A stretch of DNA of 64,000 bases from Candidatus Delongbacteria bacterium. Lineage in GTDB: Bacteria > UBA4055. Positions 2,975-43,465 of the stretch are shown one piece after another; the first letter of the stretch is position 1, and each line of letters starts with the position of its first letter. The notes under the pieces are model-generated. The model was not told the DNA's origin, searched no databases, and saw nothing but the letters and a program-made list of their open reading frames with translations. The stretch covers positions 15,459-79,458 of the forward strand of contig JAFGUZ010000165.1 of NCBI GenBank assembly GCA_016938275.1, in the 5' to 3' direction. The translations under genes and the position numbers were made by a program.

Positions 2975-3016
2975 TTTTTCCTCCATTGTTTATAATCAGA
3001 CATCTATGTCAAAATT

Positions 3017-3045
3017 ATTTTATCAACTTACATAAGTATAGTCAA
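3017..3045 (-). promoter_or_regulatory. sigma70-like promoter (TTGACT, 17-nt spacer, TAAAAT) for the receiver gene
   Basis: Read on the minus strand it gives TTGACTatacttatgtaagttgaTAAAAT. It lies between the hydB-proximal hairpin and the RR start. Confidence 0.35.
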
Positions 3046-3065
3046 TATAATTTTTTAGAATTATT

Positions 3066-3084
3066 GCGGCAGGAAATCTGCCGC
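3066..3084 (-). terminator. stem-loop GCGGCAG-gaaat-CTGCCGC immediately after the hydB stop (weak terminator or mRNA-stabilising hairpin; no U-tract on the minus strand)
   Basis: 7-bp GC-rich perfect stem. On the minus strand the downstream sequence is A-rich rather than U-rich. Confidence 0.3.
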
Positions 3085-3090
3085 CTATTC

Positions 3091-4821
3091 CTATTTCATA
3101 AGATCTTCAAATTCTGATCTGAATTTTTTCACCATATTCTCAATAGGCACACAGAAAGCCTCACCTGTAGGACAGATAGTAACACCTTTAACATTTCTAC
3201 AAATTGTAAGGATATTCTCAAGATCCTCTGGTTTACCATTTCCATCAAGAATATTAGTTAAAATTCTCTTAATTGATTGAGATCCATGACGACAAGGTGC
3301 ACATCTTCCACAAGATTCATGAGCATAGAAATCTATCGTTCTTTTTGCAATTTTTGGTATAGATGTCTCTTTGTTGATAACCATTACCCCACCAGACCCA
3401 AGTGCAGTACCATGTTTAATACATGAATCATAATCCATCTTCAGATTTTGAAGCTCGTTAGCAGTAAGAATAGGTACAGATAAGCCACCAACTATAGCCG
3501 CTTTCAATTCCCCTTTTACACCACCTGCAGCTTCAATAAGCTCATCAAATGGAATACCCATTGGATATTCGTATACGCCAGGTTTGTTTACATGACCACT
3601 AATTCCAAAAATTTTAAATCCATTATTATTTGACGGTCCAAATGTTCTGTAAGCCTCAGCTCCATTTTCAACAATGTAAGGAACACTTGCCAAAGTTTCA
3701 ACATTGTTAACAATAGTAGGGCATCCATATAGACCTTCAACAGCAGGGAATGGAGGTTTTATTCTAGGCTCACCACGCTTACCTTCAATAGATTCGATCA
3801 AAGCAGTTTCTTCACCGCAAACGTAAGCACCAGCTCCCCTATGAACAATAATATCGAAATTATTAAGTTTTCCATCTCTTCTGGCTTCTTCAATAGCATT
3901 TTCTAAAATCTGTGCGATCCACTCAAATTCACCACGAATATAGATAAAACCAAGTTGCGATTTTAAAGCGTGAGCTGAAATCACCATACCTTCAATTAGA
4001 AGATGTGGATCGTATTCCATAATTTGTCTGTCTTTGAAAGTTCCAGGTTCACCTTCGTCAGCATTACAGATTAGGTATACTGGTTTTTCATTATTTTTTG
4101 GTAAGAATCCCCATTTAACACCAGTAGGAAAACCAGCTCCCCCCCTGCCTCTAAGCATGGATTTTTTTACTTCAGAAATAATATCAGCTGGATTCATTTC
4201 TAAAGCTTTTACTAGAGCTGAATAGCCACCATTTTTCTTGTAAGTATCAATAGATACAGAATTTTCTACACCACGATTTTTCAAAAGGATATTACATACT
4301 GTAGCCCAATTATATTCATCCTGTTTCGGAGGCATCACACCTTCTCTTAATGATTTTATCAGTGCAACTGTTTTTTCAGGAGTCATATTTTCATAATATG
4401 TGTCGTTAACTTGAATTACTGGACATGAACCACACGAACCTAAATCTTCAACAGCTTTCAATGTAAACATTTTATCGCTAGTCGTTTGACCAACTTCAAT
4501 TCCAAGTTCATCTTTCACAGTTTTTAAAATTTCACACGCACCCATAAGTGAGGCGGGGATGTTTGTATCAACTTGAATAAAATATTTACCAACTTCTTTA
4601 GTATTGTACATTGAATAATAAGTCAACACACCGTAAGCAGCGGATTCAGGAACTCCAAGAAGTTCTGCAACTTCTCTGGTAAGGTCTCTAGTGATGTAGT
4701 TATTATTATCTTTCTGAACCATCATAAGAGCAGGCATAATAGCAGACTCTTTCTTAGGATATCTTCCAGCTAGATCCAGAATTTTTGATTTTATATTATC
4801 AGAAATCATTATATCTCCCAT
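3091..4821 (-). CDS. NuoF-like NADH-binding flavoprotein (hydrogenase diaphorase subunit, HydB/HndC type) with an N-terminal NuoE/thioredoxin-like domain
   Basis: NADH/FMN motif GGAGFPTGVKWGF. C-terminal 4Fe-4S motif CGRCAPC...C. The N-terminal ~150 aa are NuoE-like but retain only CGSC (CxxC), with no Cx4C pair. Confidence 0.85.
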   Translation of the reverse strand: MGDIMISDNIKSKILDLAGRYPKKESAIMPALMMVQKDNNNYITRDLTREVAELLGVPESAAYGVLTYYSMYNTKEVGKYFIQVDTNIPASLMGACEILKTVKDELGIEVGQTTSDKMFTLKAVEDLGSCGSCPVIQVNDTYYENMTPEKTVALIKSLREGVMPPKQDEYNWATVCNILLKNRGVENSVSIDTYKKNGGYSALVKALEMNPADIISEVKKSMLRGRGGAGFPTGVKWGFLPKNNEKPVYLICNADEGEPGTFKDRQIMEYDPHLLIEGMVISAHALKSQLGFIYIRGEFEWIAQILENAIEEARRDGKLNNFDIIVHRGAGAYVCGEETALIESIEGKRGEPRIKPPFPAVEGLYGCPTIVNNVETLASVPYIVENGAEAYRTFGPSNNNGFKIFGISGHVNKPGVYEYPMGIPFDELIEAAGGVKGELKAAIVGGLSVPILTANELQNLKMDYDSCIKHGTALGSGGVMVINKETSIPKIAKRTIDFYAHESCGRCAPCRHGSQSIKRILTNILDGNGKPEDLENILTICRNVKGVTICPTGEAFCVPIENMVKKFRSEFEDLMK

Positions 4822-4845
4822 TTTTTAATTCTTTGAATTTGATAA

Positions 4846-6630
4846 TTAGTGTTTATGTGTAACCTCTTTTACAGCATTACCAAAAGCTTTTGATCTTTCA
4901 AAGTAATTTGTGTGAAGTAATTTATGAGCAAGTTCTGAATTTGGTTTTTCTAGATAGTCTTGATAAATTTTCTGAACCATTGGATTTTCATGAGAGAATC
5001 TTATAGAAAGAGCTTTATCTTCATTATAAAGACCTTCACCACGAACTTCTCTATCAACCATTCCACAACCGAAAGGCTGACCACCACCTCCAACACATCC
5101 ACCTGGACATGCCATTACTTCAATGAAATGGAATTCAGATTTACCAGTTTCAGCAATTTGAGCTCTAACTTTATCCATTAATTTTCTAGCATTTCCAAGA
5201 CCGTTTGCAACAGCTACTCTAACAGGGAAAGGAAGTCCAGGAGCATCAATAGTTGCTTCTTTAATACCTTCTAATCCTCTAACAACTTTGATATCTGGAT
5301 CAGGAAGATTATTGTTAGTTAAAAGGAAGTATGCAGATCTTACGGCTGCTTCCATAACACCACCTGTTGCACCAAAAATTGTAGCAGCACCAGTATAAGC
5401 ACCCATCAATCTGTCAGCTTCTTCTTCAGGTAAATTTTTATAGTCTAGACCAGCTTCTTTAACCATTCTAACAAACTCTCTAGTAGTAAGAACATAATCA
5501 ACATCCTGATATCCAGAATCATTCATTTCAGGTCTTCTAGCTTCAAACTTTTTAGCAGTACAAGGCATTAGAGATACAGAAACTATATCTTTAGGATCAA
5601 TATTATTTTCTTTAGCATAATATGTTTTTACCAAAGCACCAAACATTTGCTGTGGAGATTTACAAGTAGAGACATTTTTTGCAAGATCTGGGAAGAATGT
5701 CTCCATAAATTTAATCCATCCAGGAGAACAGGAAGTAACAAGTGGTAATGTGCCACCATTAACTACTCTAGAAATAAGCTCAGAACCCTCTTCCATAATT
5801 GTAAGATCGGCTGTAAAATTTGTATCAAACACTCTGTCAAAACCAAGTCTTCTTAATGCTGCATACATTTTACCAGGAGTAGCAAGACCTTGCTCCATGC
5901 CAAATTCTTCAGCTAAAGCAACTCTGATTGCAGGAGCTTCTTGAATGACAACATGTTTTTTAGGATCAAGTAAAGCTGTCCATACTTCATCAATTTCACT
6001 TTTTTCAGTTAAAGCACCAGTTGGACAATAAACTGTACACTGTCCACAATTGATACATGGACTATTAGCCATTCCTTCATCAAAAGCTGTTGTTGCATAT
6101 GTTTTATAGCCTCTTTCAGCTTTGGTAAGAGCATTTACAGTCTGAATGGACGAACATACTTCTATACATCTTCCACAATTTATACATTTATTAGGATCTC
6201 TAATTATCGATGGGCTGGAATCGTCAACAGGAAGTCTTTCCATGCTCACAGGAACTCTTCTCATCGTTACGCTAAGATTATTTGCTAGATCTTCAAGTTC
6301 ACATTTTCCATGAGCAAGACAAGTAGGACATTCAACATGATGATCAGCCAAAGTCATCTCTAGAATAAGCTTTCTTGTTTCTCTAATACGCAATGAATTT
6401 GTTGTAACATCCATACCCTCTCTAACTGGAGTTGTACAAGATCTTTTTGGGCTATTTTCACCTTCTATATCAACAACGCATATACCACAACTTCCAGATG
6501 GTTTTAAATCTGGGTGATAACAAAGACTCGGAATTTTTATTCCAACCTTTTTTGCTGCTTCTAAAATTGTAGTGTTTTCTGGTACTTTAACTTCAAGACC
6601 GTCAATTACCAGGTTTACCATTTTTTGCAT
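4846..6630 (-). CDS. hydA: [FeFe]-hydrogenase catalytic subunit (M3-type: 2Fe-2S ferredoxin, His-ligated 4Fe-4S, 2x 4Fe-4S, H-cluster domain) with an atypical L1 motif
   Basis: N-terminal 2Fe-2S cysteines; HHVECPTCLAHGKC; CINCGRCIEVC; CINCGQCTVYCP. H-cluster motifs are L2 MPCTAKKFE and L3 EVMACPGGCVGGGGQP. L1 reads TSCSPGW (Ser where the second Cys is expected). AAGGAG RBS. Confidence 0.85.
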   Translation of the reverse strand: MQKMVNLVIDGLEVKVPENTTILEAAKKVGIKIPSLCYHPDLKPSGSCGICVVDIEGENSPKRSCTTPVREGMDVTTNSLRIRETRKLILEMTLADHHVECPTCLAHGKCELEDLANNLSVTMRRVPVSMERLPVDDSSPSIIRDPNKCINCGRCIEVCSSIQTVNALTKAERGYKTYATTAFDEGMANSPCINCGQCTVYCPTGALTEKSEIDEVWTALLDPKKHVVIQEAPAIRVALAEEFGMEQGLATPGKMYAALRRLGFDRVFDTNFTADLTIMEEGSELISRVVNGGTLPLVTSCSPGWIKFMETFFPDLAKNVSTCKSPQQMFGALVKTYYAKENNIDPKDIVSVSLMPCTAKKFEARRPEMNDSGYQDVDYVLTTREFVRMVKEAGLDYKNLPEEEADRLMGAYTGAATIFGATGGVMEAAVRSAYFLLTNNNLPDPDIKVVRGLEGIKEATIDAPGLPFPVRVAVANGLGNARKLMDKVRAQIAETGKSEFHFIEVMACPGGCVGGGGQPFGCGMVDREVRGEGLYNEDKALSIRFSHENPMVQKIYQDYLEKPNSELAHKLLHTNYFERSKAFGNAVKEVTHKH

Positions 6631-37351: not shown

Positions 37352-38902
37352 ATGGAGGACGAGATGTTTGAAAAAATTTCTGCATTCCTTGAGAAAGTGG
37401 GAGTTCTTTCCAAAGGTGGCGGAGAGGATAAGATTCAACAACGAAAACAAAAAGGATTATTAACTGCCCGTGAAAGAATAGATACATTACTTGATAAAGG
37501 TACCTTCAATGAGTTAGACCTTTTTGTTGAGCATCAAGGTCGTGATTTTGGTCTTGACAAACAAAAGCTTGCTGCTGATGGTGTTATTACTGGATTTGGT
37601 AAAGTTCATGGTCGTGACGTTTGTGTTTACGCTCAAGATTTTACAGTTCAAGGTGGATCCCTTGGTAAAATGCATGCTGCGAAAATTACAAAAGTTATGG
37701 ATTTGGCATCAAAAATGGGAGTCCCTGTAGTTGGAATCAATGACTCTGGTGGAGCTAGAATCCAAGAAGGTGTGGATTCTCTTGCTGGATATGGAGAAAT
37801 TTTTTATAGAAACACTATTAACAGTGGTAAAATTCCTCAAATTTCTGTAATTATGGGTCCTTGTGCTGGTGGAGCTGTATACTCACCGGCTATAACTGAT
37901 TTTGTATTCATGGTTGATAAAAAATCACAAATGTTTATTACAGGACCAAAGGTTATCGAATCTGTTCTAAACGAGAAAATTGCACCTGAAGAGCTTGGGG
38001 GTGCTTTGGTTCACAATAAAAAAACAGGTAATGCACATTTTTTTACTAAAAATGAACAGGAAACCTTTGAGCAAATCAGAAAATTACTACAATTTTTGCC
38101 TTCAGCATGGGATAAAGAAATTCCTAAATCTGAACCAAAACCTCCAAAAGCAAATTATGAAATAACAAGAATTGTACCTGAAGATACAAGAAAAGCTTAT
38201 GACGTAAAAGATCTTATCAAAGCTATTGTTGATAATTCAGACTTTATGGAAGTTCAAGAACTTTTTGCTCAGAATGTTGTGGTAGGATTTGCCAGACTTA
38301 ATGGTAAAAGTATAGGAATTGTGGCGAATCAACCAAAATATTTAGCTGGTGTACTTGATGTAGATTCTTCCGATAAAGCAGCTAGATTTGTAAGATTTTG
38401 TGATGCCTTCAATGTACCACTTCTTACTCTAGTAGATCTACCGGGATATCTTCCAGGTGTTGACCAAGAACATAATGGTGTAATCCGACATGGTGCAAAA
38501 CTACTTTATGCCTTCTCTGAAGCTTCTGTACCTAAAGTAACTTTAATTGTCCGTAAGGCATACGGAGGTGGATATATTGCGATGTCATCAAAACACTTAA
38601 ATACCGATTTTGTTTACGCATGGCCAACAGCAGAAGTTGCTGTAATGGGTCCTGAAGGAGCTTGCAATATTATTTTTGCAAAAGAGATTTTGGAATCAGA
38701 AAATCCTGAACTTACCAGACAACAGAAGGTTGCTGAGTATAAAGAGAAGTTTTCAAATCCATATAAGCCAGCTTCAAAAGGTTATGTTGATGCTGTAATT
38801 CACCCAAATGACACTCGTAAAACTCTCATAAGTGCATTTGAGATTGCAAAAGATAAAAAGCCTTACTACAAAGAACATAAACACGGCTGTATCCCTCTAT
38901 AG
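37352..38902 (+). CDS. acyl-CoA carboxyltransferase (methylmalonyl-CoA decarboxylase alpha / propionyl-CoA carboxylase beta / transcarboxylase 12S family)
   Basis: 516 aa. Two crotonase-like carboxyltransferase halves; the overall sequence is characteristic of MmdA/PccB. Confidence 0.85.
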   Translation: MEDEMFEKISAFLEKVGVLSKGGGEDKIQQRKQKGLLTARERIDTLLDKGTFNELDLFVEHQGRDFGLDKQKLAADGVITGFGKVHGRDVCVYAQDFTVQGGSLGKMHAAKITKVMDLASKMGVPVVGINDSGGARIQEGVDSLAGYGEIFYRNTINSGKIPQISVIMGPCAGGAVYSPAITDFVFMVDKKSQMFITGPKVIESVLNEKIAPEELGGALVHNKKTGNAHFFTKNEQETFEQIRKLLQFLPSAWDKEIPKSEPKPPKANYEITRIVPEDTRKAYDVKDLIKAIVDNSDFMEVQELFAQNVVVGFARLNGKSIGIVANQPKYLAGVLDVDSSDKAARFVRFCDAFNVPLLTLVDLPGYLPGVDQEHNGVIRHGAKLLYAFSEASVPKVTLIVRKAYGGGYIAMSSKHLNTDFVYAWPTAEVAVMGPEGACNIIFAKEILESENPELTRQQKVAEYKEKFSNPYKPASKGYVDAVIHPNDTRKTLISAFEIAKDKKPYYKEHKHGCIPL

Positions 38903-38910
38903 GAGATTAT

Positions 38911-39234
38911 ATGACACAAACAGGAATCATTCAAATAGATACAAACGGTGCTAAGTATGAAACTGAGTTCACTGATAATTATCTTGAGAATATTAAATAT
39001 AAATTACCTGAGCAAGGTCAGCTTAAAGCTGTCATCCCAGGTCTTATTACTGATATCAAAGTGTCTTCTGGCTCTAAATTAAAAAAGGGGAAAACAATTC
39101 TTGTTTTAGAAGCTATGAAAATGCTCAATGACATATTTATTGACTTTGATATAATTGTGAAAGATATTTCGGTTTCTGTTGGTGATATTGTTGTTAAAAA
39201 TCAACTTTTAATCACCTATGAACGAGCCGAATAA
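38911..39234 (+). CDS. small biotin carboxyl carrier (biotinyl-domain) protein
   Basis: EAMKM biotinylation motif in a ~70-aa C-terminal biotinyl domain; 107 aa (1.3S/MmdC-like). Confidence 0.8.
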   Translation: MTQTGIIQIDTNGAKYETEFTDNYLENIKYKLPEQGQLKAVIPGLITDIKVSSGSKLKKGKTILVLEAMKMLNDIFIDFDIIVKDISVSVGDIVVKNQLLITYERAE

Positions 39235-39293: not shown

Positions 39294-40619
39294 GTGACTA
39301 GTAATCTCAAGAATCTATCAAAATTAGCATATCCTGTTGTCTTAGGTCAAATTGCTAACATGATTCTTCATTTCGTTGATAGATATTTTATAGCTATGCT
39401 CGGTGTAGATGAAGCAGCTGGTTCTAGTCTTTCCGGTGGTCTGATATGGGTTCTTATGAGTTTTACAATGCTTATTTCAGGTGGTACAGTAGCATATATT
39501 TCTAGAAGAGTAGGCGAAAAAGATTTTGTTAAGGCTGGAATTGGTGCAGAACAATCGGTTTTACTTTCAGTTTTTCTAGGAATCTTCTTAGGTTTAGTCT
39601 CTTTTATTTTCTCCGAACAACTAATTGGCTTTTATAATGCAACTCCTACTGTTACAGAAATAGGTATCGTATATTTCGATGTATTAGCTATTGGATTCCC
39701 TTTCTTAATTTCAGGAATGGTATTGGCTTCGGTTTTTCAGGCAGCAGGTGACACAAAAACACCAATGTTCATTTTTGCTGGTATGAGTGTAATGAATTTA
39801 ATTCTCGATCCTGCATTTATTTTCGGCTTCCATTTAATTCCTCCTATGGGTGTGAAAGGAGCTGCTATAGCTTCAGTACTTTCGGAAGCTTGTGCCTTCA
39901 TAGCTATTTTATACATGATGATAAAATCTACAAAATTTAAAATTCAATTTAAAAATTTCTTTATAATTCATCGTGAAATTGCCTTTCGTATTTTAAGAAT
40001 TGGCTTTTGGACTGGTCTTAATGGTTTTTCTAGACCACTTTCCGCTATATTTCTTCAAAAGGCCCTAGCCTATCACGGTACAAAAGCTATCGCAGCTTTC
40101 AGTTTTGGTATACAATGGATCTCTTTATACTTTGTTGTAATGGAAGGTGTAAGAGTAGCAGTTGCAACCCTAGTAGGTCAAAATCTTGGTGACAAAAATT
40201 ATCCAGAGGTACATAATAGTGTCAAATCCGGATTAAAACTTGGAGTTTTAATAGTTATTTTATCTTTAATAGTAGGAATTCCTCTTAAAGAAACGGCAAT
40301 TTCAATTTTTTCAAAAGATCCTGAAATAATTAAAATGGGATCATCATACCTTTTCATTGTAATCATTTCTTTAATTTTTGAAGTTCCTATGACTGTTTAC
40401 GCTGCAGCCTTAAACGGTGCTGGAGATACCAAGCCGCCAATGATCATTGCTTTCATATCTAATTGGTTGGGAAAAATTAGCATAGCTTACATTTTCACTT
40501 ATATCTTCAATTTCGGTGTAGATTGCGTATGGTGGGCTATTTCTGCTTCAATTGTAATTGAGGGAGTTGGAATGTGGATCTGGTTCAAACGAGGTACATG
40601 GATGAGAAGAGTTGTTTAG
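39294..40619 (+). CDS. MATE-family multidrug/oligosaccharide efflux transporter
   Basis: 12 TM helices with the typical MATE N-terminus LAYPVVLGQIANMILHFVDRYFIAMLG. GTG start with AAGGGGGA RBS. Confidence 0.8.
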   Translation: MTSNLKNLSKLAYPVVLGQIANMILHFVDRYFIAMLGVDEAAGSSLSGGLIWVLMSFTMLISGGTVAYISRRVGEKDFVKAGIGAEQSVLLSVFLGIFLGLVSFIFSEQLIGFYNATPTVTEIGIVYFDVLAIGFPFLISGMVLASVFQAAGDTKTPMFIFAGMSVMNLILDPAFIFGFHLIPPMGVKGAAIASVLSEACAFIAILYMMIKSTKFKIQFKNFFIIHREIAFRILRIGFWTGLNGFSRPLSAIFLQKALAYHGTKAIAAFSFGIQWISLYFVVMEGVRVAVATLVGQNLGDKNYPEVHNSVKSGLKLGVLIVILSLIVGIPLKETAISIFSKDPEIIKMGSSYLFIVIISLIFEVPMTVYAAALNGAGDTKPPMIIAFISNWLGKISIAYIFTYIFNFGVDCVWWAISASIVIEGVGMWIWFKRGTWMRRVV

Positions 40620-40779: not shown

Positions 40780-41028
40780 CTATTTCCACCTCTTCAAATT
40801 TGGCAAAGTTTGATTCAGAATTTCCCTCGCTTCTTGTTCGTTCATACCCTCTTCTTTCATATACTGTACACAAATATTAATCATACTATCCATTGTAATT
40901 TCAGGAATAGTATACTTACCATTCTGATAACAATAAGTACAAAACTCATTTGTTTTTGTGCCATCTTCCAATGTTCCAAATAGATTTTCATTCTCCATTG
41001 GCATCCCACAGCTTTGACATAGATTCAT
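40780..41028 (-). CDS. small C4 zinc-ribbon domain protein (82 aa)
   Basis: CQSCGMP...CTYCY two CxxC pairs. Belongs to the 'putative zinc ribbon' small-protein family. Confidence 0.55.
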   Translation of the reverse strand: MNLCQSCGMPMENENLFGTLEDGTKTNEFCTYCYQNGKYTIPEITMDSMINICVQYMKEEGMNEQEAREILNQTLPNLKRWK

Positions 41029-41101
41029 AATACTCTCCTTAAGTTTAGTTCAAAGGAAATTTACAATCATAATTATGACATCATTATGTCGTATATAAAA
41101 A

Positions 41102-42016
41102 TTATAAATCATAATTTGATAATGTGTTTTTAAGAATATCCTTCATCTTTTCTCTGGCATAATCAGGATTAAGTAATGTCAGGCTATCCCCAAAACCTAA
41201 GAAAAAATCATAAATCCAGCGATTTAGTGGGAGCCTAATTCGTAAGATTACAGTATTATCATTTGCCTGTTCAAACTCACTATCATCGAAATATAACTTA
41301 GCTTTCTTTATTCCATCTCCTCGAAAACTGAGAGTAAACTCTTCAGAATTTTTCTCGCTCCATTCTTTGTCAAAATCCAATTTAGAAAATTCTCGTCTGC
41401 AAAATCGTTCTTTTAAAACTTTAATTTCAGCAATTCTATTGATCCTAAACAATCTAAAATCCGATCTTAGAGAACAATATGCGTATAGATACCATACACC
41501 GGATTTATTAACAAGTTTATGAGGTTCAATTATTCTTTCAGTTTTGTCAAAATCACTTGAATTATACACTATAGCTATTTTATTGCTTTGATCAATACAA
41601 TCAGATATAGTTGATATTCTGTCCTTTAACTTTTTAGAAAACCCCCATTGGGAAAAATCAAATTCAATCTTATCATTTTGAAAACATGAATCTTTCTTTA
41701 CTGTGGAAATTTTAGATATGGTGTTTTTTAACTTCACACTGTCTAATCCAGATGAAACTCCAGACAAAAGTTTCATTATAAGGTCTGCTTCTTCGTCTGT
41801 AAAAAAACTTTTGTCAATTTTGTAATTTTTATCAATAAAATAACCACCATCCTTACCTCTTTCAGAAAAAACTGGTATTCCGGAAGCACTTATTGCATCT
41901 ATATCACGTTGAATGGTACGGATGTTAACATCGTAATAATCGGCAAGTTCTTTGGCTGTTATTCTGTTTTTCGTTGCAAGAGTAAGTACAATACCTAAAA
42001 GCCTATCACTTTTCAT
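41102..42016 (-). CDS. YafY-family transcriptional regulator: N-terminal HTH, central WYL domain, C-terminal WCX-like domain (BrxR/CapW/PafBC-like architecture)
   Basis: N-terminus RLLGIVLTLATKNRITAKELADYYDVNIRTIQRDIDAISASGIPVFSERGKDGGYF is canonical YafY HTH. WYL motif in VWYLYAYCSLRSDFRLFRINRI. Confidence 0.75.
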   Translation of the reverse strand: MKSDRLLGIVLTLATKNRITAKELADYYDVNIRTIQRDIDAISASGIPVFSERGKDGGYFIDKNYKIDKSFFTDEEADLIMKLLSGVSSGLDSVKLKNTISKISTVKKDSCFQNDKIEFDFSQWGFSKKLKDRISTISDCIDQSNKIAIVYNSSDFDKTERIIEPHKLVNKSGVWYLYAYCSLRSDFRLFRINRIAEIKVLKERFCRREFSKLDFDKEWSEKNSEEFTLSFRGDGIKKAKLYFDDSEFEQANDNTVILRIRLPLNRWIYDFFLGFGDSLTLLNPDYAREKMKDILKNTLSNYDL

Positions 42017-42027
42017 AATCTTTCAAC

Positions 42028-42630
42028 CTAAAACCTTTTTTTTAAAGCCCAATTATATTGTTTTTCATCAAATAACTTATCAATATATGTTTTAGTTATT
42101 CTAATTGTATCTATCGGTTTATCTGTTGAATCAGTTTTAGTATAGTTGATTTTATCTACCACTTCCAAGCCCAAAACTACCCGCCCAAAAACAGTATACT
42201 CTCCGTCAAGCTGATGTTGTGGTCTTACACAAATGTAAAACTGAGATCCTGATGATTTTTTTTCAGGATTTACTTCATCGGCTGTTCTTGCCATTGCCAC
42301 GGCACCTCTGAAGTGAATTCTTGATATCTCGCTTTCAATTTCTTCTCCTTTATTTCCAGATCCCCAATCTTTTGATTTCTCCCCTTTTGTATTTGGGTCA
42401 CCGGTTTGTATCATAAATCCTGGAATAACCCTGTGAAAAGCGAGACCTTCATATGATCTGTTTTTTATCAGCTTTATGAAATTTTCACAATGTTTCGGTG
42501 CATCATTTTTGAACAACTCTATAATAACATCTCCGCTATCTGTCTGTAAAACACAGACATCAATTAAAAAATCCTCTTTTTCAATAGCTGATAATTTCAA
42601 AAAAAATATTAAAATTAATAAAAATCTCAT
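42028..42630 (-). CDS. periplasmic cyclophilin-type peptidyl-prolyl cis-trans isomerase
   Basis: Signal peptide. FHRVIPGFMIQTGDP and SGSQFYI cyclophilin motifs. Confidence 0.85.
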   Translation of the reverse strand: MRFLLILIFFLKLSAIEKEDFLIDVCVLQTDSGDVIIELFKNDAPKHCENFIKLIKNRSYEGLAFHRVIPGFMIQTGDPNTKGEKSKDWGSGNKGEEIESEISRIHFRGAVAMARTADEVNPEKKSSGSQFYICVRPQHQLDGEYTVFGRVVLGLEVVDKINYTKTDSTDKPIDTIRITKTYIDKLFDEKQYNWALKKRF

Positions 42631-42730
42631 TCCTCCTCCTTTTCAATTGAGTAAATATAGTTAAATTATTTTTTATGAATATCATTTTTATTAAAATTAT
42701 TATATATTTAGAGAAAATTTGGAGGTTAAT

Positions 42731-43465
42731 TTGAAAATTAAGGTTTTACTTATACTCATTATAAGTCTTATAGTATACTCTGTTCCACCATTTTGGGAAT
42801 TTCAGACTACAGAGAACAATCATTCTGTTTTTATTTTATCTGAAGCAAATCCAAGAATTAACACAACACCTCTGGTTGAAGGTGATTATATTGGAGTTTT
42901 TTACGAAAATGATGGATTACACTATTGCTGTGGATATACAGCTTTTATACCGAATACTACTCTAAGCTTAAGTGCATGGGGTGATGACAATTCTACACCT
43001 GAAAAGGATGGACTGGCAAATGGTGAAACTTTTAAATGGAAAATTTTTCAAGCATCAACAGGATTTGTTTACAGTGCAAATGCAACCTACGCTCCTATTG
43101 GTGGACCGCTTTACAACCAAACGTCTAATTACGCAACAGATGGAATAAGCGGAATTACTGATTTAATTGGTCAAGGAGTATCAATTGAAGAACAAAAGCC
43201 ATCTTCAAGTATTTTAATCAAAAACTATCCCAATCCCTTCAATCCTGAAACAGTGATAAGCTTCGAACTTAAAGGTAGAGAGTATGTAAAACTTGCAGTT
43301 TACAATGCTAAAGGCGAATTGATAAGATCACTTGTAAACGGAATATTGAACCCTGGTAAACATGTAACTTCATTTAATGCTTCAGATTTAAACTCTGGGA
43401 TTTATTATTATATTTTCACGGCAGGTGAGGAAAAACATTCTGGAAAAATGGTTCTTGTGAAATAG
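42731..43465 (+). CDS. secreted protein with a type IX secretion system C-terminal sorting domain (T9SS CTD)
   Basis: Signal peptide. The C-terminal ~80 aa (KNYPNPFNPETVISFEL...SGIYYYIFTAGEE...KMVLVK) match the Por_Secre_tail signature. The start was moved to TTG 42731 (GGAGG RBS 5 nt upstream). Confidence 0.7.
   Translation: MKIKVLLILIISLIVYSVPPFWEFQTTENNHSVFILSEANPRINTTPLVEGDYIGVFYENDGLHYCCGYTAFIPNTTLSLSAWGDDNSTPEKDGLANGETFKWKIFQASTGFVYSANATYAPIGGPLYNQTSNYATDGISGITDLIGQGVSIEEQKPSSSILIKNYPNPFNPETVISFELKGREYVKLAVYNAKGELIRSLVNGILNPGKHVTSFNASDLNSGIYYYIFTAGEEKHSGKMVLVK

Follow-up and report, generated by a model that had tools for sequence, protein, structure and literature searches.

What does a WYL-domain regulator control when it stands in a genome among housekeeping genes, and by what means? 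The question arises at a locus in a 64,000-nucleotide (nt) stretch of Candidatus Delongbacteria DNA (GenBank assembly GCA_016938275.1, contig JAFGUZ010000165.1, positions 15,459 to 79,458 of the forward strand; hereafter the window), where the gene for a WYL-domain transcription factor of 304 amino acids (aa) is followed on the same strand, after a spacer of 73 nt, by the gene for an 82-aa zinc-ribbon protein of the Zn_ribbon_2 family (PF12674). Identical proteins are recorded from a Candidatus Delongbacteria metagenome-assembled genome, as 'YafY family transcriptional regulator' (P0021) and 'zinc ribbon domain-containing protein'. An earlier note on this DNA had taken the two genes for a compact, probably co-regulated pair under a repressor of the BrxR/CapW kind. 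Here, we find that the pair is a conserved, real regulator-target cassette, and we have moderate confidence that it is a self-contained two-gene stress cassette in which a ligand-activated WYL homodimer turns on the zinc-ribbon gene. The parts of the cassette in the window are as follows.

41102-42016, minus strand: WYL-domain transcription factor, 304 aa, HTH_11-WYL-WCX (Pfam, PDB profile search, Foldseek)
41840-42004, minus strand: winged helix-turn-helix (HTH) DNA-binding domain of the regulator, aa 5-59 (Pfam HTH_11, E 2.6e-13)
41417-41617, minus strand: WYL ligand-binding domain of the regulator, aa 134-200 (Pfam, E 3.6e-19)
41123-41341, minus strand: WCX (WYL C-terminal extension) domain of the regulator, aa 226-298 (Pfam PF25583, E 5.6e-08)
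41076-41091, minus strand: predicted operator, CGACA-TAATGA-TGTCA on the coding strand (family motif, sole match in the window)
41058-41063, minus strand: predicted -10 hexamer TAAATT, 12 nt downstream of the operator
41033-41040, minus strand: Shine-Dalgarno sequence AAGGAGAG, 4 nt ahead of the zinc-ribbon ATG (read off the sequence)
40780-41028, minus strand: Zn_ribbon_2 (PF12674) protein, 82 aa (Pfam, E 1e-29)

The regulator and the zinc-ribbon gene are conserved together

The earlier note had proposed a check of synteny, holding that the pairing would fall if the two genes were found unlinked and the regulator's orthologues beside unrelated housekeeping genes; the two proved to be conserved together. 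A survey that started from the zinc-ribbon protein and took one genome per species confirmed 574 relatives; at the 80 best loci, WYL homologues were located by tblastn with the window regulator. Of these 80 loci, 44 have a WYL homologue on the strand of the zinc-ribbon gene and no more than ~3 kb away, and in 40 the homologue is immediately upstream or fused. The WYL gene is directly upstream in 34 loci, with 34-180 nt from its stop codon to the zinc-ribbon start, and its open reading frame (ORF) runs in frame into the zinc-ribbon ORF in 5; the order is reversed at L019, with the WYL gene 10 nt downstream of the zinc-ribbon gene, and the two genes are 0.7-3 kb apart at L023, L070 and L075. Paired loci occur in Bacillota, Thermotogae, Spirochaetes, Fibrobacterota and Desulfobacterota, the taxa being Bacillus, Cytobacillus, Lysinibacillus, Paenibacillus, Brevibacillus, Cohnella, Clostridium, Oscillospiraceae, Thermotogae, Spirochaetaceae and Fibrobacterota. 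No third conserved gene was found across the 80 loci, where the neighbours vary. The idea of a co-regulated pair holds for the linkage and not for the co-regulation, as the two genes are better seen as a regulator and its regulated target.

The regulator was also followed from its own side, with a profile built from 11 WYL sequences that retrieved 80 metagenomic homologues of 27-36% identity. Where the downstream slot of these homologues is not taken by a Zn_ribbon_2 gene, it holds a gene of the GyrI-like/Cass2, DUF3795 (Cys-rich), VOC/glyoxalase, PNPOx-like or DinB_2 type. Regulators that are nearest relatives of each other have the same type of downstream gene in 94 of 111 cases, compared with 37% expected.

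The closest pair elsewhere is found at L143, whose zinc-ribbon protein is 75% identical to that of the window. Its WYL gene (3001-3914) is split into two ORFs of 146 and 112 aa, probably a frameshift, a pseudogene or an assembly error; both the operator and the zinc-ribbon gene are whole, and genes of the FMN-reductase-like and YciI-like types come after them. At L070, the cassette is disrupted, an IS110-type transposase gene (4651-5691) having separated the zinc-ribbon gene from the WYL gene and its operator. In five loci (L027, 6283-7170; L070, 6271-7134; and three more), the zinc-ribbon gene is followed after 16-40 nt by a co-directional radical-SAM gene (CxxxCxxC; similar to spore photoproduct lyase, SplB or 'DNA repair photolyase'), a neighbour that hints at a DNA-damage context.

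A predicted palindromic operator lies where a -35 box would be expected

For the regulator's operator, the earlier note had pointed to the sequences on either side of the regulator gene. The upstream one (42017-42027) turned out to be merely an 11-nt gene junction; the spacer (41029-41101) does contain a palindromic operator, at 41076-41091. We aligned 45 regulator-to-zinc-ribbon spacers and counted a motif when at least 9 of 10 positions matched. On this basis, TGACA-N6-TGTCA is present in 41 of the 45, compared with 0.135 on average and at most 2 in shuffled sequences. A TAnnnT hexamer follows 12 nt after the palindrome in 33 loci and 11 nt after it in 6, the aligned consensus being AAa.aTGACA.AcaG.TGTCA..tTt..tttg.TATA.T, and in 13 loci the TGA stop codon of the regulator doubles as the start of the left half-site. 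A minority of loci have an N7-spaced GAC/GTC centre. The window operator, CGACATAATGATGTCA, begins 10 nt beyond the regulator stop codon and matches the family consensus at 9 of 10 positions. Across the window, YGACA-N6-TGTCR has this one match, against 0.06 expected, and a search of the same 64 kb for further regulon members by operator match found none. The corresponding site at L143 reads CGACACTGTGTTGTCA and is followed, after 12 nt, by TATAAT.

When the -10 box is set at -12 to -7, the palindrome covers approximately -40 to -25, and the -35 position falls on the non-conserved N6, which in the aligned promoters is not TTGACA-like. Of the 42 promoters aligned, 39 have a GTC triplet 12-13 nt ahead of TAnnnT. 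In the window, there is no -35 hexamer 16-18 nt upstream of TAAATT, and a consensus promoter scan of the spacer returned no good sigma-70 promoter. This operator-promoter geometry is conserved across the WYL-zinc-ribbon pairs.

The operator belongs with the target gene and is not a matter of mere adjacency, because it is kept at L075, where the WYL gene is 2 kb off, and at L070 despite the IS110 insertion that separates the two genes, and because it was not found at the 36 Zn_ribbon_2 loci that have no WYL gene nearby. TGACA-N6-TGTCA is also present behind 25 of 66 homologous regulators with other output genes, which include GyrI-like, DUF3795, VOC, PNPOx and DinB_2 genes. The small Cys-rich DUF3795 protein (PF12675) occupies the same slot behind the same operator at L130, L131, L141, L144, L146, L156 and L157, and some DUF3795 loci have a second operator ~53 nt upstream of the regulator gene. 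Autoregulation through an operator upstream of the regulator was considered and set aside for the cassette, since such a site is missing from the window and is present in 2 zinc-ribbon-paired loci and in ~17 homologues with other outputs.

The regulator is closer to PafBC and DriD than to BrxR and CapW

The HTH-WYL-WCX architecture that the earlier note had read in the regulator is confirmed by matches to Pfam HTH_11, WYL and WCX, and the protein belongs with the WYL-domain transcription factors of the PafBC/DriD/SiwR class (COG2378, YafY). Its framing as a BrxR/CapW-like repressor does not fit as well, as the regulator is closer to PafBC and DriD by both sequence profile and fold. With a profile of 51 homologues against the PDB, PafBC was the best match and aligned over the full length (6sj9, E 1e-38; PafC, 1e-26), whereas the matches to DriD, BrxR and CapW were confined to the WYL/WCX part at ~1e-10 to 1e-11, with E-values on the WYL domain of 2e-10 for BrxR and 9e-10 for CapW. 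The AlphaFold2 (AF2) model of the regulator (pLDDT 85, pTM 0.53) has an HTH domain of three helices and a wing. A Foldseek search with this model placed DriD and PafBC on top (E ~1e-13), followed by BrxR and CapW (1e-11 to 1e-8), all four being full-length matches with a probability of 1.00.

PafB reads a GTC triplet with R46 and R50 (PMC8635444), and mutating its R181, Y196, R204, R208, R211 and R214 abolishes binding of single-stranded DNA (ssDNA) (PMC11804915). Judged by alignment, the window regulator keeps both the DNA-reading and the ssDNA-binding residues. In its recognition helix, R33-T-I-Q-R37, R33 and R37 align with PafB R46 and R50 (profile alignment, chain 7p5x_AY) and are conserved among the homologues. 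In the WYL domain, R161, Y176, R184, R188, R191 and R194 have the same spacing as the PafB ssDNA-binding set, and R161, Y176, R188 and R194 are invariant in 51 homologues. The GAC/GTC half-sites of the operator are predicted to be read by the two recognition-helix arginines.

The predicted output is a small acidic protein with a putative metal site

The 82-aa product was correctly recognised in the earlier note as a double-CxxC zinc ribbon. It matches PF12674 at full length (profile positions 1-81 of 81) with 103.5 bits against a cutoff of 22.5, and has Cys4, Cys7, Cys30 and Cys33, of which the first three are invariant in the alignment and the last is nearly so; the motifs CQSCGMP and PNLKRW are also invariant. 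With all four cysteines and both motifs, the window protein is a typical stand-alone member of the family. Its isoelectric point is 4.55, compared with a family median of 5.3. The AF2 model is confident (pLDDT 96) and shows two knuckles held in the beta-hairpins of a zinc ribbon, together with two helices; the Cys4 cluster is a putative metal site, for Zn or Fe. We found no solved structural relative of Zn_ribbon_2. Generic binding of nucleic acid by the protein was judged unlikely, the domain being acidic.

An exhaustive profile search returned 2,684 Zn_ribbon_2 clusters at 50% identity, spanning bacteria and archaea, most of them stand-alone proteins of 85-95 aa. Fused forms combine the domain with GyrI-like/Cass2 (in both orders), VOC/bleomycin-resistance-like, PNPOx-like or DJ-1/PfpI domains, and further ones with XRE-type HTH (with or without VOC) or WYL-WCX. 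Of the WYL-linked targets in Bacillota, 21 have the Zn-GyrI-like form, and GyrI-like, VOC and PNPOx are at once fusion partners of Zn_ribbon_2 and output-slot genes of homologous WYL cassettes. These partner families typically bind or detoxify genotoxic and electrophilic small molecules, and for that reason the zinc-ribbon protein is probably an accessory or binding module, with a metal or redox function, in a genotoxin or electrophile response. Further variants in the family include proteins with two Zn_ribbon_2 domains in tandem (such as P0141, 175 aa, and P0142, 171 aa), members lengthened by 30-45 residues at the N-terminus, and members with a membrane segment at the C-terminus (P0219).

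Relation to known WYL systems

Among characterised systems, SiwR comes nearest to the cassette in design, and PafBC in sequence and in the geometry of the promoter. SiwR, a WYL protein that acts as a homodimer and binds ssDNA, activates the DinB-like genes beside it; its site is a 19-bp palindrome upstream of the -10 box, its -26 region is required, and its alternative neighbours include glyoxalase-like genes (PMC10693628). The SiwR-dinS system of Mycobacterium smegmatis resembles the cassette in having a single HTH-WYL-WCX factor dedicated to a small target next to it and a palindrome, imperfect in SiwR, that lies upstream of the -10 box and reaches the -35 region. SiwR binds ssDNA through WYL arginines whose equivalents appear, from the alignment, to be conserved in the window regulator, and its glyoxalase-like and DinB alternative neighbours belong to the families that fill the output slot here. 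The two differ in that the SiwR target is divergent and of the DinB_2/DUF664 type, whereas here it is co-directional, immediately downstream and a Zn_ribbon_2 gene; the -26 triplet is GGA in SiwR and GTC here; and the cassette belongs to another phylum and is known from sequence alone.

PafBC of Actinobacteria is the best full-length sequence relative in the PDB. It recognises tGTCgg(N10)tA(N3)T in promoters without a -35 box, contacting positions -23 to -28, a mode termed 'sigma adaptation' (PMC8635444). The cassette shares with it a GTC triplet 12-13 nt upstream of a canonical -10 box and the lack of a -35 box, and its regulator has kept the Arg pair with which PafB reads DNA and the Arg/Tyr set with which it binds ssDNA. 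PafBC is, however, a heterodimer or fusion of two paralogues that uses a single half-site and governs ~150 genes, whereas the cassette combines one regulator gene with an operator of two-fold symmetry and, apparently, a single target.

DriD of Caulobacter crescentus, the top Foldseek match, is a homodimer with an ssDNA ligand that activates the small-protein gene didA. It binds ATACGAC(N7)GTCGTAT, the crystallised site being ATACGACAGTTACTGTCGTAT (PMC10853764), and its site ends at -36, beside a real -35 box (PMC9186387). Its half-sites are ATACGACA...TGTCGTAT, and the distal half-site in the window is identical to ATACGACA. The spacing differs, being GAC-N7-GTC in DriD and GAC-N8-GTC here, and the DriD site lies upstream of the -35 box, whereas here the operator replaces it; DriD also controls a regulon of several genes and stands apart from its targets. 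BrxR and CapW, the repressors of BREX and CBASS, share with the cassette the HTH-WYL-WCX fold, palindromic operators and control of a neighbouring operon. Unlike them, the cassette has no defence genes; the sequence similarity is limited to the WYL domain (~1e-10, compared with 1e-38 for PafBC), and the absence of a -35 box from the promoter speaks for activation.

Proposed activation of the zinc-ribbon gene, and alternatives

In the stress cassette that we propose, the regulator would be made constitutively, probably by read-through with the transcript of the upstream peptidyl-prolyl isomerase (PPIase) gene, an unrelated housekeeping gene. The WYL protein, most likely a homodimer, would bind the 16-bp palindrome CGACA-N6-TGTCA, which would occupy the usual place of the -35 box behind the regulator stop codon. 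At a promoter with a -10 box and without a -35 box, RNA polymerase would be expected to fire efficiently only once the ligand-bound regulator bridges DNA and sigma. Activation would then take place in the '-26 element' or sigma-adaptation mode of PafBC, proposed for SiwR as well, in which the ligand-dependent contact is with region 4 of sigma, here that of the housekeeping holoenzyme. The ligand would most likely be ssDNA arising from DNA damage, held by the Arg/Tyr patch of the WYL domain, and the output would be the 82-aa acidic Cys4 Zn_ribbon_2 protein, expressed from its own promoter. The domain architectures, the linkage, the operator-promoter geometry and the conservation of DNA-reading and ssDNA-binding residues are observed; we infer activation rather than repression, as well as the biochemical role of the zinc-ribbon protein.

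Several points weigh against this proposal. An operator over the -35 region suits a repressor equally well, and an extended -10 element (TGn), present in 15 of the 42 promoters, could allow firing without an activator. The window -10 box, TAAATT, is weak, and the promoter consensus applied may not be that of Delongbacteria. CapW, a repressor, also binds ssDNA (PDB 9c5g title), so that the ssDNA-binding residues cannot separate activators from repressors. The Foldseek margin of DriD and PafBC over BrxR is small (1e-13 versus 4e-11), on a model with a pTM of merely 0.53. WYL genes are not found near 36 of the 80 Zn_ribbon_2 loci, and from the regulator side a Zn_ribbon_2 gene adjoins, downstream, just 12-13 of the 80 metagenomic WYL homologues. 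Near the regulator's closest relative by sequence (P0022, 45% identity), both the zinc-ribbon gene and the operator are missing. Binding at the operator, the transcription start site and the ligand are likewise points that we infer.

The main rival places a repressor at the same site: a WYL dimer on -40 to -25 would block RNA polymerase, and the ligand would de-repress the zinc-ribbon gene in the manner of BrxR and CapW. The operator does overlap the polymerase contact region, the 15 promoters with an extended -10 could work without a -35 box, and BrxR and CapW have the same fold, with significant Foldseek matches, CapW also binding ssDNA. However, 27 of the 42 promoters lack an extended -10 as well as a -35 box and would be very weak if unoccupied, the distance from GTC to the -10 box is that of the PafBC -26 element within 1 bp, and the full-length sequence kinship is to PafBC rather than to BrxR or CapW. 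Considering also that SiwR, the closest characterised analogue in design (homodimer, one adjacent small target, palindrome), is an activator, we regard repression as possible but unlikely. A different role for the palindrome, as an RNA hairpin, terminator or attenuator of the regulator transcript, is suggested by its position just after or overlapping the regulator stop codon and by the T-rich stretch that follows in many loci. The stem would be just 5 bp, though, a terminator scan predicted nothing at the spacer, and the half-sites are invariant instead of covarying, the rare changes being one-sided and breaking the pairing. The constant 11-12 nt to the -10 hexamer and half-sites identical to those of DriD and PafBC point to a DNA site, and the RNA reading, which we hold to be barely conceivable, was rejected.

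Compatible with the activator cassette, and in our view improbable, is a partner model in which the zinc-ribbon protein also binds the regulator, either to sense with it or to modulate it by feedback. Single ORFs with the order HTH-WYL-WCX-Zn_ribbon_2 exist in two lineages (L044, L045, L049 and L056; L072), more WYL-zinc-ribbon fusion ORFs were found (P0201, P0215, P0270, P0289), Zn_ribbon_2 is also fused to XRE-type HTH proteins (L038, L042, P0199), and the zinc-ribbon protein is acidic, as opposed to the basic ligand tunnel of WYL domains (PMC11804915). The fusion ORFs of 412-439 aa were at first attractive as Rosetta-stone proof of interaction and were then downgraded, because the linker at L044, L045, L049, L056 and L072 is an intact former spacer, which retains an operator with an N5 centre, a -10 box 12 nt on, an AAGGAGG ribosome-binding site and the zinc-ribbon ATG. 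The N5 centre leaves the left half-site's TGA in another frame, and the reading frame of the regulator stays open across the spacer, giving in these metagenome-assembled genomes a gene fusion with an internal promoter. As an old spacer read in frame, the fusion may be neutral, and the small protein may still be made separately; the fusions are weak evidence for a physical complex. Most Zn_ribbon_2 fusions, moreover, are with enzyme-like or ligand-binding domains instead of regulators, and the 36 members without a WYL gene nearby also speak against a partnership. WYL regulators are common in defence islands, and the CRISPR-associated WYL models of PADLOC match the regulator, so that it might gate an anti-phage system or island, as BrxR does with BREX and CapW with CBASS. 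These PADLOC matches are limited to the WYL domain of the regulator and include no neighbour; the flanking genes are housekeeping genes, the 80 loci have no conserved third or defence gene, the sole operator in the window faces the zinc-ribbon gene, and Zn_ribbon_2 is nearly missing from phages (5 of 50,697 phage records). On these grounds a defence gate was rejected as very improbable, and the earlier note was right to recognise no defence system here.

Implications

The linkage of WYL and zinc-ribbon genes, the output gene and the operator consensus are not described in the searchable literature, in which we found no mention of PF12674/Zn_ribbon_2, nor of WYL regulators with GyrI-like proteins. 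The cassette is a variation on the known WYL activator design and not a new kind of system. We tentatively suggest that it represents undescribed, cross-phylum, single-output WYL cassettes sharing TGACA-N6-TGTCA-N12-TAnnnT, with Zn_ribbon_2 as a new Cys4 metal module. WYL regulators have been studied chiefly in Actinobacteria, in Caulobacter and in defence islands. If the cassette works in the manner of PafBC, sigma adaptation would not be an actinobacterial speciality but a widespread wiring of DNA-damage or xenobiotic responses, extending to Bacillota, Thermotogae, Spirochaetes, Fibrobacterota and Delongbacteria. Zn_ribbon_2 could then be a redox or electrophile sensor, or an adaptor acting with GyrI-like, VOC, PNPOx and DJ-1 proteins, and might feed back on the regulator. 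For a large group of 'YafY family' regulators, which includes cultivable Bacillus, Lysinibacillus, Paenibacillus and Clostridium species, the analysis supplies a regulon of one gene and an operator-promoter consensus precise enough to be tested, and it provides a first functional handle on PF12674. For the window alone the meaning is modest, namely a small stress cassette in an uncultured Delongbacteria genome.

Flanking genes

Two genes border the cassette directly.

42028-42630, minus strand: cyclophilin-type PPIase gene (Pfam Pro_isomerase, E 1e-49)
39294-40619, plus strand: MATE transporter gene, convergent to the zinc-ribbon gene (family match)

The 73-nt gap and the convergent MATE gene had been described accurately in the earlier note. 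Calling the zinc-ribbon gene the regulator's only co-directional neighbour, it had overlooked the PPIase gene, whose 3' end lies on the same strand 11 nt from the regulator ATG. The PPIase has a hydrophobic, signal-peptide-like N-terminus (MRFLLILIFFLKLSA). No PPIase homologue was found near WYL-zinc-ribbon pairs among the 80 genome loci, and the gene is outside the conserved cassette. No tRNA genes and, at the gathering threshold, no Rfam families were detected in the whole 64-kb window. The wider neighbours are housekeeping genes, encoding a carboxyltransferase, a biotin carrier, the MATE transporter, the PPIase, a protein with a type IX secretion system tail, an amidohydrolase and release factor RF-1. 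Divergent from the PPIase-WYL-zinc-ribbon string, a gene at 42719-43465 (plus strand) encodes a secreted protein with a type IX secretion C-terminal sorting domain (Por_Secre_tail). On the other side, 37352-39234 (plus strand) holds genes for a carboxyltransferase (516 aa) and a small biotinyl-carrier protein (107 aa), with the MATE gene directly after them; separate from the WYL-zinc-ribbon finding, they may be part of a biotin-dependent carboxylase or decarboxylase system.

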